Sequence record: PV584117.1
Length of the DNA stretch: 50,572 bases
Strand: one strand, 5' to 3'
Source: Escherichia phage XJA18-XJ-2024
Below the pieces are notes generated by a model, which saw only the letters and a program-made list of their open reading frames with translations, did not search any database and had not been told where the DNA came from. Of the stretch, positions 27,525-50,511 are shown one piece after another. Each line of letters opens with the position of its first letter. Position 1 is the first letter of the stretch. The position numbers and the translations under genes are program-made.

Positions 27525-27545
27525 TTTAACATTTAGTGCTATTTT
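27525..27545 (-). promoter_or_regulatory. 20-bp box (minus strand AATAGCACTAAATGTTAAA) upstream of terminase small subunit
   Basis: box family member, forward orientation, downstream of terminator. Confidence 0.5.
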
Positions 27546-27559
27546 ACCATATTGCAGGC

Positions 27560-27582
27560 ATAAAAAAACCCGCCGAAGCGGG
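27560..27582 (-). terminator. rho-independent terminator ending early operon
   Basis: hairpin ACCCGCTTCGGCGGGT with T7 on minus strand. Confidence 0.65.
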
Positions 27583-27592
27583 TCAGTGTTCA

Positions 27593-27820
27593 TTACGACA
27601 ATCGTCGTTTAATGCCTTTGGGGTGAGTCTGTGCTTTAGAGTAACAGTGAGCAAGATCGCCAGTCATTTCCCATTGGTCCTTCTTGGATGAGTAGGTAAG
27701 CCATACACCAGTTTTATCCTTAGCGTCCATCGCAATTGCTGCCGCAACAAGTGCGAAGCCAGCAAACAAACCAGCACCAAAAATAACGATACCAGCAATA
27801 ATCAATAAAAAAATGGTCAT
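27593..27820 (-). CDS. small membrane protein
   Basis: 75 aa; N-terminal hydrophobic helix; AAGGAG RBS. Confidence 0.5.
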   Translation of the reverse strand: MTIFLLIIAGIVIFGAGLFAGFALVAAAIAMDAKDKTGVWLTYSSKKDQWEMTGDLAHCYSKAQTHPKGIKRRLS

Positions 27821-27821
27821 G

Positions 27822-28007
27822 TTAAATCTCCTTGATTAATTCGATGTTTATTTTATGAGTGTCAAGATTAGCGCCGGAAAGTTTCTTCGCTTTCGTGATG
27901 GCTTCTGCCTGACTGGTTGCAGATAATTCTGTTTCGAAAGATTGTTTGCACGACTGGCAAAACATCCCCATCTTTCGAATAATTAATTTAACTTTGAACC
28001 GCTTCAT
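27822..28007 (-). CDS. hypothetical protein
   Basis: 61 aa; CxxC pair; tightly packed in operon. Confidence 0.4.
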   Translation of the reverse strand: MKRFKVKLIIRKMGMFCQSCKQSFETELSATSQAEAITKAKKLSGANLDTHKINIELIKEI

Positions 28008-28313
28008 CTTCCTGCGCCTTAATCATAACTCCAGCGATGCGACCAATAACGGCCTCCCCAGGATTTAAGCGTTTTTTATAGCGAGTTGTTTCGCCGTTGC
28101 GAGTTACTTTAATTTCGATTTTGACTGATTCGCCTTTGATATTTTGCATTATGCAATCCTCTTTAGTTTTTGCCGCTTACGGGTCTGCGGCGTTGCTTAA
28201 CCACTATGCAACCGAGCTTTTTAGCTGGAAGTGTGAGAATCATCTCACGCGTTGCGCTTCTTTGCGCCTCGTCTGTCTACGGGATTAATACTATCACCGC
28301 TCAGCGATTCAGG

Positions 28314-47516: not shown

Positions 47517-47536
47517 TTTAACAAAAAGTGCTATTT
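47517..47536 (-). promoter_or_regulatory. promoter cassette box upstream of Dam
   Basis: AATAGCACTTTTTGTTAAAA (minus strand); 22 bp to CATTAT; CACCGAAACGAGAGGA leader. Confidence 0.55.
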
Positions 47537-47947
47537 CGTTAAATCGTATATTGCCAGCTTGAATTGCTCAAATCCGTATGCGACGGCAGAGAATCCTCCG
47601 CGATCCCGAACCTTTTTGAGAAACTCCCTTTGCTTATCGCTGACTGGTGATGCCTTTCCTTTGCCGGACTTATTAACCCGCTTTAGTTCGATAGCTGCAA
47701 ACGGGTAGCGTGAGTTTATACCAATCAGAATAACAAAGTCTGACACGCCTTTGAGTAATCCAGCCTGTTCATCCCTTAGCGCCGACGTTATTGTTTTTTC
47801 ACCTTCATTAACTGTGTGCCAAAATAGAAGCTGAGGAAAATTGTATTTCAACCAGGATACGCAATCTACTTGATGAGCGTCCTCCTTTCTCGTGTCGCTA
47901 GGATCTCGCTCGTAAAACTCTAAGTAATCGCCTTTGTCTGTAATCAT
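47531..47947 (-). CDS. VRR-NUC domain nuclease
   Basis: 138 aa; GVSDF...AAIELK (D/ExK nuclease motif); overlaps helicase stop. Confidence 0.55.
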   Translation of the reverse strand: MITDKGDYLEFYERDPSDTRKEDAHQVDCVSWLKYNFPQLLFWHTVNEGEKTITSALRDEQAGLLKGVSDFVILIGINSRYPFAAIELKRVNKSGKGKASPVSDKQREFLKKVRDRGGFSAVAYGFEQFKLAIYDLTK

Positions 47948-49962
47948 TCCGGGATATCCTCCATACCGAAGTCTTTGCGTGAAATAATATCTTCTTTCTT
48001 CTGGTTGCGTCTATGAGTAACACGTACCGGATGCGCTATATGATGAGAGTATTGCACGATCTTGATAGCGTTCTTCATTCCGATAAAGTAGCGACGCATT
48101 TTAGGATCTGACACGTGAGGTAATACTCCTTTCGTTTTCCATAGCGTACCGCAGATCTTAGAGTCTGACTCAGGGAAGAACTTTTCATACGCCTTAAACT
48201 CATCACCCTCATCGTTAATAAGCGTGTATTTGTATATCACACCTTTTTGGTTTTTGGTTAACGTAACCTCAAAATTCTTGACCTCGTACCAGTCATTCTT
48301 AGTGTACGCCTTACCGGATAACTTAAGGTTAGGATCGACAAGAGAAACATCGCAACAGCGACAGACTCGGGCCACAACATCATTCTCGGCACCGCACCCT
48401 TTAACAAGAATTTTCCCGGTACGTTCATCAACTTGGTCCTCGCAAATCTGAGATGTCCAGAAATGATCGCAGCGTTCACCGTCGATAACGTTAACGCAAC
48501 GGCGAGCATAGAAGCTATTTACGCAACCACATTTAGGACACGTTTTCGGGTCTTTTCCGTTCTCGAATCGCTTCTGAAACTGAGCCTGCTCAAGTATAGG
48601 GTCAAAATAAAGCTGCCCCAACTCGTCCATCGTACCAGCAAAATCCCATACCAGATGATCTTGCTTAACCATTCCTTCAGCAACCTGCCAGGATTTAAGA
48701 AGTCGCATACCCCTACCCAAAAGCTGAATCAGCAAGGTAAGAGATCCTATCTTGCGAAGTATTACACTAAAATCCCAATTTGGAACGTTAACGCCAGTAG
48801 TTAGCGCCATGACCTGAAAGGTATATTTAATTTTCCCGGCCCTCACATCATCAAGAATCTTCTTGCGCGTTTTAGTGTCTGTGTCGCCAGTAATAATTGC
48901 ATATGTGCTCCCTGGTGGTAGTGCCGCCGCCGCCTCTTTGCAGTGACGCACCCCGGCGCATGTAATCAGAACTGCGTTACGCTCTTCAGCCTTTTTGGCA
49001 ACCATTTGCATGATTCGCTGGGTAAGAGATTTATCATGAAGGATCTCATCTTCCATTGCCTTCATATCTTTCTCTGTGAAGTCCTGTACCCCATCCTCGC
49101 TTGATGCCTTAAATTTATCAAGATCGTAGTGAACTCCGTCCGTCGAGCCGAATATAGTCGGAACGACTGAGCCAAACTCAATAAGGTAGTTGGTGTCTAT
49201 ATCAGTAACGCGCTCACGCCAGAAGCCTAACGCCTTTGGATTCTCAACAAGAATAGGAACTACACCCCTAAATTCAGATCCAGTCATACCAAATATTCTA
49301 AGGTCGTGACCGTGAACCTCTTTACAGCGTCGCATCATTTCCATGATTACGATCGTGTACTGACTGCGCTTAGTTCCAAGAAGAGGCTTTCCATCATTAC
49401 CAATCAGAGGAGTATCACCGTCCATGATAATTTTCCCTTTCTCTCCCCGCATCTGTTCCATTGTTTCCTTTCCGTCTATGGCTTGCGCAAGGTCTTCCCA
49501 ATCCACCTGGTGACATTCATCTATCCCGATTACGTGAGGGACAAAATCAGCCAACTCATTATTTAAACCATTTGCAACAGTGCCCTCAGAGCCTACCACG
49601 ATCGGGAAGTAGCAAGACTTGATTCCAAGTGACGCTGAGAATATAGAGTTAGTCACTCCGAAATTGTCGATCTCTTCACTATCCTGATCGACAATCTCAC
49701 CCTGGCGTGCCAGCACAAGCATTTTCAAGCCCATTTTTTGACACTGCTTTGCAACCATAGCAAAAATGATGGTCTTACCCGCCGATACTGACGCTTTAAC
49801 AAAGAATGGATGATCATAATTTGATAGGCGTTTTGCGATCTCAGCATAAGCAACAACCTGGTACGGATACGGAACTACCTCACCAACAGTGAATCGTTCT
49901 TGAGTGCGTTTTATATAGTCCTCGCCAAGTAATGCGATTTGCTTTTTGATGTTAATTGTCAC
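47944..49962 (-). CDS. SF2 ATP-dependent DNA helicase
   Basis: 672 aa; Walker A SAGKT, DECH box (IGIDECHQ), C-terminal Cys-rich zinc-finger-like region; GTG start. Confidence 0.8.
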   Translation of the reverse strand: MTINIKKQIALLGEDYIKRTQERFTVGEVVPYPYQVVAYAEIAKRLSNYDHPFFVKASVSAGKTIIFAMVAKQCQKMGLKMLVLARQGEIVDQDSEEIDNFGVTNSIFSASLGIKSCYFPIVVGSEGTVANGLNNELADFVPHVIGIDECHQVDWEDLAQAIDGKETMEQMRGEKGKIIMDGDTPLIGNDGKPLLGTKRSQYTIVIMEMMRRCKEVHGHDLRIFGMTGSEFRGVVPILVENPKALGFWRERVTDIDTNYLIEFGSVVPTIFGSTDGVHYDLDKFKASSEDGVQDFTEKDMKAMEDEILHDKSLTQRIMQMVAKKAEERNAVLITCAGVRHCKEAAAALPPGSTYAIITGDTDTKTRKKILDDVRAGKIKYTFQVMALTTGVNVPNWDFSVILRKIGSLTLLIQLLGRGMRLLKSWQVAEGMVKQDHLVWDFAGTMDELGQLYFDPILEQAQFQKRFENGKDPKTCPKCGCVNSFYARRCVNVIDGERCDHFWTSQICEDQVDERTGKILVKGCGAENDVVARVCRCCDVSLVDPNLKLSGKAYTKNDWYEVKNFEVTLTKNQKGVIYKYTLINDEGDEFKAYEKFFPESDSKICGTLWKTKGVLPHVSDPKMRRYFIGMKNAIKIVQYSHHIAHPVRVTHRRNQKKEDIISRKDFGMEDIPE

Positions 49963-50024
49963 GGCTATTTAATCCTTTGAATCGTTGTATCGTTTACGCT
50001 ATAATACACGTCATACAGTAAACG

Positions 50025-50044
50025 TTTTTAGCAAAAAGTGCTAC
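50025..50044 (-). promoter_or_regulatory. promoter cassette box upstream of helicase; abuts RBS of divergent HTH gene
   Basis: TAGCACTTTTTGCTAAAAA (minus strand); 22 bp to TATTAT. Confidence 0.5.
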
Positions 50045-50056
50045 AGGAGAATTAAG

Positions 50057-50509
50057 ATGAGTATTCAACGAATCGCTGAGTCAACAGGTGAAATCGATAA
50101 ACGTCACATCAATGGTAACAACGGAACGCGACGCGGTAAAGACAAAAAGCCTCGCCAGCGATGCGGATTCTATATTCACAAAGAAGAAACACGAGCCGGA
50201 CTACGAGCGCGCCTTGATGCTCTTATCGAATATTACGGCGGCCCGGCGGCCTGCGCAAAGGCTTTGAAAGTTAGCAATCAGACCGTGCAAGGCTGGAAAG
50301 ATCGCAATATGATTTCATGGCAAGGTGCTGAAGCTGCGCATCGTGCTTACCGCCGACAGGGGTGTAAAGGATTTCGTGCCGCATGGTTGCGATTCGACCT
50401 GAAGTTTGACGGTAACGGCAAGTGCCTTGAGAAGCGATGCAAGAACAAGAAGTTTATGCGGGTCGTGAAGAAGGAAGATATTGGAACGACAAATAGCATT
50501 TTTAGTTAA
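50057..50509 (+). CDS. HTH DNA-binding regulator (Cro/YdaS-like)
   Basis: about 150 aa from ATG with AGGAGAA RBS; HTH segment GGPAACAKALKVSNQTVQGWKDRNMISWQ. Confidence 0.55.
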   Translation: MSIQRIAESTGEIDKRHINGNNGTRRGKDKKPRQRCGFYIHKEETRAGLRARLDALIEYYGGPAACAKALKVSNQTVQGWKDRNMISWQGAEAAHRAYRRQGCKGFRAAWLRFDLKFDGNGKCLEKRCKNKKFMRVVKKEDIGTTNSIFS

Positions 50510-50511
50510 AA
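50492..50511 (+). promoter_or_regulatory. promoter cassette box at window end, likely serving primase at window start
   Basis: AATAGCATTTTTAGTTAAAA overlapping stop codon; followed by hairpin. Confidence 0.45.

Follow-up and report, generated by a model that had tools for sequence, protein, structure and literature searches.

A repeated intergenic cassette of T1-like phages has the architecture of host class II marbox promoters and is probably activated by MarA/SoxS/Rob-type regulators

The DNA analysed here, the 50,572 nucleotides of Escherichia phage XJA18-XJ-2024 (PV584117.1; hereafter the window), is an essentially complete genome of a T1-like siphophage (50.6 kb; Tunavirus, Drexlerviridae), in which a 20-bp box recurs at gene boundaries as part of a larger, promoter-like cassette. 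The window is about 92% identical over 12 kb to the Escherichia phages SA12KD and LeonhardEuler (Drexlerviridae, Tunavirus) and to Shigella phage Sfin-1, and its gene order is that of T1. The minus strand carries small early genes and the structural genes between about 36.8 kb and 7.4 kb; an early arm on the plus strand occupies 37.1-43 kb, and the replication and lysis genes are at 43-50 kb. The original prediction, made from the letters of the window, described about 25 copies of a promoter/leader cassette between 27525 and 50511, oriented with the downstream gene. Building the weight matrix proposed there as a check, we called the box with a position weight matrix (PWM) derived from the clearest copies and found, at a score of at least 13, 29 copies in the window, all at gene boundaries (Table 1). 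The repeat itself therefore stands but its range does not, as six copies, at positions 994, 4575, 10868, 13115, 17056 and 20819, lie beyond it; the orientation is upheld too, but three boxes point away from the neighbouring genes (see below).

The box has the form ATAGCAC-NNW-TTGYTAAAAC, with a spacing of N3. The consensus initially proposed, AATAGCAC-N4-5-TTGYTAAAA, has no match, whereas the core TAGCA-N5-TGCTA, part of the same proposal, was found eight times in the window against 0.05 expected. An equal frequency of the box inside genes would have spoken against a regulatory role in the original account; however, none of the 29 boxes lies deep within a gene, and the only intragenic matches are weaker (score 8-10) and look like chance. 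In about 20 of the 29 copies the stop codon of the upstream gene falls within or beside the box, as a TAG at box positions 2-4, a TAA at positions 15-17, or a TAA just 5' of the box. The C-termini NSTNC, STFC and NSIFS, already noticed in the original prediction, are the product of stops inside the box. The distance from the start of the box to the start codon is 71-85 nt.

A -10-like hexamer is found at a fixed distance in 23 of the 29 copies. The claim that a TATAGT-like hexamer lies exactly 22 bp past TTGYTA, which is 18 bp past the 20-bp box, holds for 21 copies, with an nA...T hexamer (TATAGT, TATAAT, TAGAAT, TATTAT, CATAAT and similar); in two further copies the hexamer is one base off, at 17 or 19 bp from the box, and the claim fails for the boxes at 994, 10868, 13115, 20819, 27523 and 36827 (6/29), which have no usable -10. 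The same box and hexamer were recovered in related genomes, a comparison that had also been called for: of the 312 non-redundant box contexts collected from T1, Klebsiella phage KP36 and IMG/VR contigs, 178 show TAnnnT precisely 22 bp away, whereas at 16-18 bp it is almost absent. In the logo of these 178 cassettes, numbered from the A of ATAGCAC as position 1, the hexamer reads T-A-t-a-(a/g)-T at positions 39-44 and is preceded by a G at position 37 (-14) in 89% and a T at position 36 (-15) in 49% of the cassettes, which bears out the frequent upstream TG reported before; we take this TG to be that of an extended -10 element. Positions 47-50 are C-rich, and a C followed by A at position 51 (A in 89%) comes 7 nt past the hexamer. 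This A, predicted to be a standard start point, was taken as +1 for all promoter coordinates, which place the box at -50 to -31, with its centre at -40.5, and TTGYTA at -40 to -35. Where a -35 would normally lie, the cassettes have AAAACn, and the best match to TTGACA at a spacing of 16-18 bp has 1-3 of 6 positions in most cassettes. The early region shows no enrichment of canonical sigma-70 promoters (41 found, 37 expected), in agreement with the study of phage TLS, whose authors found only three (PMC11447400).

The leader motifs described originally are general only in part: CATCGAnAACGA is present in 7 window cassettes, and CCAATCAG, with 16 copies in the window, is found in only 18 of 161 family cassettes, among which CAYCRA is present at the start point in 80 and AACGA in 77. 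As an 8-mer, CCAATCAG is expected about 1.5 times from length; its copies (e.g., at 4532, 17045, 32741, 35081, 37088, 38268 and 40141) are mostly immediately 5' of a GGAG/AGGA Shine-Dalgarno (SD) sequence, for early and late genes alike, and it may be a family-specific translation-initiation context.

The box matches a known host site. The published consensus of the marbox, recognised by E. coli MarA, SoxS and Rob, is AYnGCACnnWnnRYYAAAY(n); exact matches to its positions 1-18 occur 19 times in the window against 0.06 expected, and matches to the 19-mer with at most one mismatch 21 times against 1.06 expected. In a family matrix of 279 cassettes, for which up to five departures from the phage consensus were allowed, marbox-allowed bases make up at least 92% at each specified position save 19. 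The most invariant positions of this matrix are G4, C5 and A6 (0.97-1.0), C7 (0.92), G13 (0.97) and A16-18 (0.96-0.98), which are the two recognition elements of the marbox. Class II marbox promoters carry the marbox in forward orientation, overlapping the -35 region, centred between -36 and -55 and about 18-19 bp from the -10 hexamer, and have been reported without a recognisable -35. In the window, the -10 lies on the AAA side in all 23 boxes that have one; relative to the predicted starts the centre falls within the class II interval; 21 copies have an 18-bp gap and the other two one of 17 or 19 bp; a sigma-70 -10 is present and a -35 is lacking; and the recognition elements GCAC and YAAA are 7 bp apart in a 20-bp asymmetric site.

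Host promoters, taken straight from the K-12 genome sequence, have the same layout. That of micF consists of the box ACAGCACTGAATGTCAAAAC, 18 bp, TAGAAT and 7 nt to the micF 5' end, so that the gap is as in the phage; the micF box is identical at 16/20 positions to the window box at 46492, including the AAAAC end. The sodA promoter consists of a box, 18 bp and TATAAT, fumC carries a perfect marbox, ATGGCACGAAAGACCAAACA, and the marRAB marbox, ATGCCACGTTTTGCTAAATC, has 14 contiguous bases, CACGTTTTGCTAAA, in common with the window box at 36827. At micF, the RamA/Rob site has its centre near -41 and the sequence CACT-N7-AAA. In the complex of Rob, RNA polymerase and micF solved by cryo-electron microscopy, Rob contacts -47G, -45A, -38G, -37T and the -35/-34 pairs, and displaces sigma region 4 from the -35; with the predicted +1, the contacted positions are G4, A6, G13, Y14, A16 and A17 of the phage box. 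Cassettes of the same architecture are present in T1, Klebsiella phage KP36 and Erwinia phage Snitter. The cassettes thus resemble the class II marbox promoters of micF, sodA and fumC in their 20-bp asymmetric, forward box, in the 18-bp gap (micF, sodA) and in lacking a -35. Unlike the host promoters, they number about 20-29 per 50 kb, in a virulent phage, and are much closer to the consensus than are most sites of the host; an extended -10 is almost always present, the cassette is joined to the stop codon of the gene upstream and overlaid by a covarying hairpin, and the boxes have the extra conserved positions A3, T11, T12 and A19.

The best explanation, and one we consider probable, is that the cassettes are sigma-70 class II promoters activated by host Rob, MarA, SoxS or RamA, and that most early and middle phage genes are probably driven in this way via MarA/SoxS/Rob. 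We infer from sequence the identity of the binding protein, activation by its binding and the transcription start sites. One molecule of a host AraC-family activator, Rob (constitutive), MarA or SoxS (under stress) or RamA (in Klebsiella and Salmonella hosts), would sit on the asymmetric box at about -50 to -31, with one helix-turn-helix (HTH) on GCAC (-47 to -44) and the other on GYTAAA (-38 to -33), and, through contacts with sigma-70 region 4 and the alpha C-terminal domain, would make up for the missing -35 contact. From the extended -10 (TGnTAtaaT), 18 bp further downstream, RNA polymerase would then initiate at the conserved A that lies 7 nt past the hexamer, giving a leader of about 20-35 nt, often starting with AUCGAAACGA and ending with CCAAUCAGAGGA-ATG. 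With a cassette beginning on the stop codon of the preceding gene, about 21-23 small early and middle transcription units would each have a start of their own. The original prediction had invoked a modified polymerase or a phage factor binding the box; a box-bound protein, and not an ordinary -35 contact, does best explain the fixed geometry, but a modified polymerase is not needed, and the likeliest factor is of the host, because the box fits the marbox, the 18-bp gap is that of micF and sodA, and the phage appears to encode no MarA-like protein. With a profile built from K-12 MarA, SoxS and the N-domain of Rob, no homologue was found by hidden Markov model search over all 848 six-frame open reading frames (best E = 0.27), nor by profile-profile comparison (hhalign) of 62 alignments of non-structural open reading frames (best probability 5.6%); a phage-encoded AraC-type activator was discarded as a candidate in the absence of any sequence or profile-profile match.

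Several points weigh against this explanation. During unstressed growth MarA and SoxS are kept low by MarR and SoxR, and Rob, which binds most tightly of the host activators, all of which recognise the same motif, is largely aggregated; T1-like phages nevertheless grow well on unstressed laboratory K-12. For this reason, dependence on the host activators may be partial, or the basal activity of the extended -10 may be enough. Positions left free in the marbox are strongly conserved in the 279 cassettes (A3 96%, T11 95%, T12 93%), and position 19 is A rather than Y in 73%, although micF likewise has A19; these could be extra constraints or the mark of a different reader. Simple class II activation does not account for the six boxes with no -10 or for the three reversed boxes at late genes. 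In the literature searched we found no binding assay, mapped 5' ends or host-mutant phenotype for T1-like phages. Finally, the likeness to the marbox was noticed after the logo had been seen, so that the enrichment statistics are not blind, although the marbox consensus, the orientation rule and the spacing are all externally defined.

A different reader could be encoded by the phage itself, an unlikely but serious alternative, in which the Cro/YdaS-like HTH regulator encoded at 50057-50509, or an unannotated early protein, would act on the box as activator or repressor and the likeness to the marbox would be convergent or partial. The regulator (150 amino acids) belongs to phrog_2856, 'transcriptional regulator', shows a weak Cro-type HTH and is a family core gene, present in 824 phage records; in a co-occurrence comparison, regulator and box were both family-wide. 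Its canonical promoter (49977-50005) faces the box at 50025-50044, which sits in the leader of the gene, and has its -10 in common with the candidate marbox promoter of the helicase gene on the opposite strand, a layout typical of an autoregulated switch. The 5-N5-5 pseudo-palindrome of the box and the conservation of the non-marbox positions A3 and T11/T12 would also suit such a protein. However, conservation of the box is asymmetric: G4 is invariant but its mirror position, 14, is C in 58% and T in 38%, C7/T11 and A1/A17 are not complementary, and there are variants, in Snitter and in the window, that keep GCAC and YYAAA while breaking the palindrome TAGCA/TGCTA (TCCGCAC, TCAGCAC, AAAGCAC, ATCGCAC...CGCCAAA and ATCGCACTAATCGCCAAAAA). 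The box is pseudo-palindromic only, which corrects the 'near-palindromic' of the original prediction, and it is not a symmetric dimer site. Moreover, T1-like phages and KP36 have the same box, although 3 of the 9 residues in the recognition helix of the regulator are not the same (VSNQTVQGW and VSIQVVQQW, respectively), other repeats over canonical early promoters, such as ACA(A)GTGCGAT, are available as operators, and a full 14-position match to the marbox together with class II orientation and micF spacing would be a large coincidence.

A symmetric dimer site, whether a Cro/CI-type operator or a CRP-like site at -42, is rejected because of the asymmetric conservation and the palindrome-breaking variants. 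CRP class II promoters such as galP1 likewise have an extended -10 but no -35, and their activator, centred near -41.5, touches polymerase directly; however, CRP is a dimer with a symmetric 22-bp site, whereas the phage box is asymmetric and of monomer type. T4 middle promoters, in which a MotA box replaces the -35 and AsiA appropriates sigma, likewise have a good -10 and no -35, and both boxes have a TGCT core; the MotA box, however, is centred at -30, 11-13 bp from the -10, whereas the phage box, centred at -40.5, fits the site of a host factor. Furthermore, T4 middle promoters need phage MotA and AsiA, and no homologues of these were seen in the window. A sigma-54 promoter (TGGCAC-N5-TTGCW, doublets 10 bp apart) was also considered and set aside: the box, TAGCAC-N3-TTGC, has AG in place of GG and a spacer 2 bp too short.

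We regard it as improbable that the cassettes are self-sufficient extended -10 promoters in which the box serves as an insulator, an UP-like element or a repressor or 'stoperator' site. An extended -10 can suffice in the absence of a -35, 89% of the cassettes have G-14 and good TAtaaT hexamers are common, and some boxes have no -10 at all; stoperator, enhancer and UP element are among the possibilities listed by the TLS authors (PMC11447400). The rigid 18-bp distance and the forward orientation instead suggest that RNA polymerase is contacted directly, the box lacks the A/T tracts of an UP element, a centre at -40.5 in a promoter with no -35 contact is a poor place from which to block polymerase, and the match to the marbox would be left unaccounted for.

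In addition to the promoter elements, the cassettes carry an inverted repeat between the box and the start site, whose sequence varies from cassette to cassette. Over the 178 cassettes the mean fold energy is -11.6 kcal/mol, compared to -5.2 for shuffles, with individual z-scores down to -6. In the fixed-register alignment, the pairs 27-50, 28-49, 29-48, 31-46 and 32-45 (about -24..-19 with -6..-1) covary above all 1000 column permutations, with alternating pair types (for 27-50, GC 30 and AT 25). A compensatory change is seen at the cassette at 34047, where the window has GTGGTT/AACCAC and T1 GGGGTT/AACCCC. Part of CATCGA pairs with sequence just past the box. In a second class of hairpin, a GC stem ends at -13 and is followed by the T-rich -10; three of these are called terminators in the T1 record. 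Of the two strands, the sense strand gives the better fold in 117 cases and the antisense strand in 43, which hints at a role of the RNA in read-through transcripts. A search of the window against Rfam gave no family match. Intrinsic terminators were rejected as a general explanation, since a scan found 21 against 17 expected; a terminator-like appearance is confined to the subclass whose stem adjoins the T-rich -10. The covarying hairpin over the spacer, the -10 and the discriminator is a separate, phage-specific layer, most likely a 3'-end, terminator or stabiliser structure of the upstream transcript. The conserved leader start CATCGAAACGA can itself pair with the discriminator just 5' of it (TTTC-ATC-GAAA), as at 42785-42801(+), forming a second small stem across the predicted start.

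The strength and covariation of the hairpins and the sense-strand bias could mean that the unit acts mainly at the RNA level, the box and hairpin being 3'-end, processing or antitermination signals of read-through transcripts, or as a shuffling junction, with promoter function secondary. T4-type phages have PeSL cassettes, repeated promoter and hairpin modules between small early genes that could mediate gene shuffling; these, however, have a standard strong sigma-70 early promoter and a separate stem-loop, whereas in the phage the hairpin overlaps the -10 and a marbox is present. The box subtypes GAA with TTGCTA and TTT with TTGTTA do resemble lineages that have spread through duplication, a G-U pair in a small RNA stem would survive the C/T variation at position 14, and the terminator labels of the T1 record point the same way. 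Nevertheless, we think this very improbable as a replacement for the promoter function, with which it is compatible: an RNA signal needs no fixed -10 distance, G-14 or +1 A, yet all three are conserved while the spacer sequence varies, the RNA stem in the box would be only 5 bp, and no Rfam family was matched. That TTGYTA, which agrees with TTGACA at 4/6 positions and has an invariant spacing, is a true -35 which a phage-modified RNA polymerase recognises across a 22-bp spacer is hardly credible, as the hexamer would lie out of phase by half a turn, we detected no gene for a sigma factor or for an AsiA-like or MotA-like protein, and TTG(Y)TA is accounted for as positions 11-16 of the marbox, a layout that host micF has with unmodified polymerase; given the marbox geometry, a displaced -35 is unnecessary.

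The repeat itself has been published. The TLS paper (2024; PMC11447400) described a 21-nt intergenic direct repeat, aaATAGCACnnnTTGnTAAAA, in 18 copies, present also in T1, Rtp and Rogue1, and listed its function as an open question, with stoperator, enhancer or UP element as guesses. It is the same element as the box, by consensus, orientation with transcription, location about 76 nt before start codons and subgroups with A, T or G; the window box agrees with it in consensus, intergenic location, direction and distance (start codons 71-85 nt from the box start). The TLS paper reported that no associated promoters were found and makes no mention of the fixed -10 and start-site geometry, of the hairpin or of a match to the marbox (PMC11447400). 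In the literature searched we found no paper linking marboxes or MarA/SoxS/Rob to T1-like phages and no transcript map of these phages; the marbox reading is new to that literature.

Activation by MarA/SoxS/Rob makes the function of the repeat directly and inexpensively testable. Extended to the Drexlerviridae, it would tie nearly all early and middle transcription of T1-like phages to host MarA, SoxS, Rob or RamA, so that phage expression would track the efflux and antibiotic-stress state of the cell (bile salts, salicylate, oxidants, mar/ram mutations), and replicating DNA with 20-29 near-consensus marboxes would act as a regulator sponge that collapses the host regulon and helps to time the early-late switch, including via the reversed boxes at late genes. 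We put this forward only tentatively, as a possibility that we think less likely than not. If the marbox reading itself holds, a large virulent family of enterobacterial phages, of which over 800 genomes have been sequenced and which is frequent in therapy cocktails and the BASEL collection, would depend on the activators of AcrAB-TolC efflux and of micF/OmpF control. Phage-antibiotic interactions would be predicted, for example with salicylate, bile salts or oxidants, as would altered growth on clinical mar, ram and sox over-expressers, and there would be a logical link to TolC-using members such as TLS, tolC being in the same regulon. A lytic phage would here clearly rely, genome-wide, on a borrowed host stress activator in place of one of its own, and the cassettes would provide a set of compact, well-defined activator-dependent promoters for engineering.

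Table 1. Box copies, candidate marbox promoters and a sigma-70 promoter in the window. Gap, distance from box to -10 hexamer; +1, predicted start; mismatches are to the marbox; T1 equivalents are given as positions in L122.
Feature	Position	Strand	Box	Gap and -10	Remarks
Box	963..1013 (box 994-1013)	-	ATAGCACGAATTGCTAAACA	poor -10 TATAGC	0 mismatches; opposes flanking + genes; just 5' of lateral tail fibre SD/ATG at 1034; T1 equivalent 34902
Candidate marbox promoter	4545..4594 (box 4575-4594)	-	ACGGCACGAATAGCTAAACA	17 bp, TG + TATAAT 4552-4557	5' of Erf-like recombinase gene; box identical to fumC marbox at 15/20
Orphan box	10868..10887	-	ATAGCACAAAAAGGTAAACA	no -10	2 nt before J-like tail gene ATG; T1 equivalent 25021
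Degenerate box	13115..13134	-	ATAGCACTTCATGACAAAAG	TAGAAT 29 bp downstream, not class II spacing	followed by intrinsic terminator
Box	17056..17106	+	ATAGCACTTCTTGTTAAAAG	18 bp, TG + TACGAT 17094-17099	antisense to late genes; directly 5' of SD of minus-strand gene ending at 17034; T1 equivalent 18850
Reverse box	20819..20838	+	ATAGCACTTTTTGTTAAAGC	poor -10 TATGAC	between upstream late gene and terminator/SD of major capsid gene; T1 equivalent 15086
Orphan box	27523..27542	-	ATAGCACTAAATGTTAAACA	no -10	0 mismatches; about 3 nt 5' of small terminase SD, 14 nt 5' of ATG at 27508; T1 equivalent 8362
Candidate marbox promoter	29323..29373	-	ATAGCACGAATTGCTAAAAC	18 bp, TGA-TATAGT 29330-29335	+1 A 29323; 15-bp hairpin spanning -10, -22.4 kcal/mol
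Candidate marbox promoter	30696..30746	-	ATAGCACGAATTGCTAAAAC	18 bp, TGA-TAGAAT 30703-30708	5' of polynucleotide kinase gene
Candidate marbox promoter	31216..31266	-	ATAGCACGAATTGCTAAAAC	18 bp, TATGAT 31223-31228	+1 A 31216
Candidate marbox promoter	32763..32813	-	ATAGCACGAATTGCTAAACC	18 bp, TGT-TATAGT 32770-32775	0 mismatches; +1 A 32763; hairpin AAGGCCA/TGGCCTT encloses -10
Candidate marbox promoter	33489..33539	-	TAAGCACGAATTGTTAAAAG	18 bp, TGG-TATAAT 33496-33501	+1 A 33489
Candidate marbox promoter	34047..34097	-	ATAGCACTTTTTGTTAAAAC	18 bp, TATAGT 34054-34059	+1 A 34047
Candidate marbox promoter	35102..35152	-	ATAGCACTAATTGTTAAAAC	18 bp, TGA-TATAGT 35109-35114	+1 A 35102
Candidate marbox promoter	35842..35892	-	ATAGCACTTTTTGTTAAAGC	18 bp, GGG-TATTAT 35849-35854	+1 A 35842; hairpin stops at -10, terminator-like
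Orphan box	36827..36846	+	ATAGCACGTTTTGCTAAAAA	no -10	in AT-rich non-coding control region
Degenerate marbox cassette	37032..37082	+	ATAGCATTTTTTGCAACACG	18 bp, GGG-TATTAT 37070-37075	5' of Dcm-like methylase gene
Candidate marbox promoter	37796..37846	+	ATAGCACTTTTTGTTAAAAC	18 bp, TGG-CATAAT 37834-37839	+1 A 37846; upstream methylase gene terminates in box (DSTFC*)
Candidate marbox promoter	38213..38263	+	ATAGCACGAATTGCTAAACG	18 bp, GGG-TATAGT 38251-38256	0 mismatches; +1 A 38263
Candidate marbox promoter	39565..39616	+	ATAGCACGAATAGCTAAAGA	19 bp, TATATT 39604-39609	+1 A 39616
Candidate marbox promoter	40080..40130	+	ATAGCACGATTTGTTAATAT	18 bp, TGA-TAAAGT 40118-40123	+1 A 40130; hairpin AAGGTCA/TGACCTT, z = -5.6
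Candidate marbox promoter	40580..40630	+	ATAGCACTTTTTGCAAAAAG	18 bp, TATCAT 40618-40623	5' of helicase-like gene 40653-42221
Candidate marbox promoter	42742..42792	+	ATAGCACTTTTTGTTAAAGC	18 bp, GGG-TATATT 42780-42785	+1 A 42792; terminator-like hairpin adjoins -10
Candidate marbox promoter	44473..44523	-	ATCGCACTAATCGCCAAAAA	18 bp, GGG-TATATT 44480-44485	+1 A 44473; 5' of lysis cluster
Candidate marbox cassette	46129..46179	-	ATAGCACTAATAGCGAAATA	18 bp, TGT-TAGCAT 46136-46141	no hairpin
Candidate marbox promoter	46461..46511	-	ACAGCACTAATTGCTAAAAC	18 bp, GGG-TATAGT 46468-46473	+1 A 46461; equivalent hairpin annotated as terminator in T1 record
Candidate marbox promoter	47484..47534	-	ATAGCACTTTTTGTTAAAAC	18 bp, TGG-CATTAT 47491-47496	+1 A 47484; 5' of Dam methylase gene
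Candidate marbox promoter of helicase gene	49994..50044	-	GTAGCACTTTTTGCTAAAAA	18 bp, TATTAT 50001-50006	+1 A 49994; kept in T1, KP36
Canonical sigma-70 promoter	49977..50005	+		TTGAAT-17-TATAAT	of HTH regulator gene 50057-50509
Box	50493..50543	+	ATAGCATTTTTAGTTAAAAC	18 bp, TAACAT, doubtful -10	forms last codons of regulator gene (NSIFS*); followed by intrinsic terminator hairpin

The boxes at 994(-), 17056(+) and 20819(+) are reversed with respect to their neighbours. Each lies just 5' of the SD of a late gene (lateral tail fibre, tail chaperone and major capsid) and is kept in T1; they could drive antisense transcripts or act in a manner unlike that of the forward boxes. Perfect or near-perfect boxes with no -10, at 27523-27542(-) and 10868-10887(-), directly precede the small terminase and J-like tail genes, and both are also kept in T1. 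Within the box, the middle triplet is linked to position 14, GAA going with TTGCTA and TTT with TTGTTA, which suggests either cassette lineages that arose via duplication or recombination, or tuning to different members of the MarA/SoxS/Rob family. At 49977-50044, the regulator promoter (rightward) and the helicase promoter (leftward) share a single -10 (TATAATA, 50000-50006), an arrangement kept in T1 and KP36 and possibly an either/or switch. The 383-amino-acid protein encoded at 44514-45665(-) is the orthologue of KP36 gp63 and T1 gp16, with the RefSeq name DNA repair exonuclease; a Sigma70_r4_2 match is noted for gp63 in the KP36 record, but the window orthologue has no Pfam match at E <=0.01 and was dropped as a candidate.

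Between the divergent early arms lies an AT-rich non-coding region of about 600 bp (36430-37030), which may serve as an origin, a pac site or an immediate-early control region. On its minus strand are the best canonical sigma-70 promoters of our scan (36811-36783, 36743-36714 and 36510-36482), and it holds three copies of ACA(A)GTGCGAT, a direct repeat, TTGCAYWYCAWGCAACAATCACAT, at 36901/36931 with a 30-bp spacing, and TATTCCAG twice, at 36986/36995.

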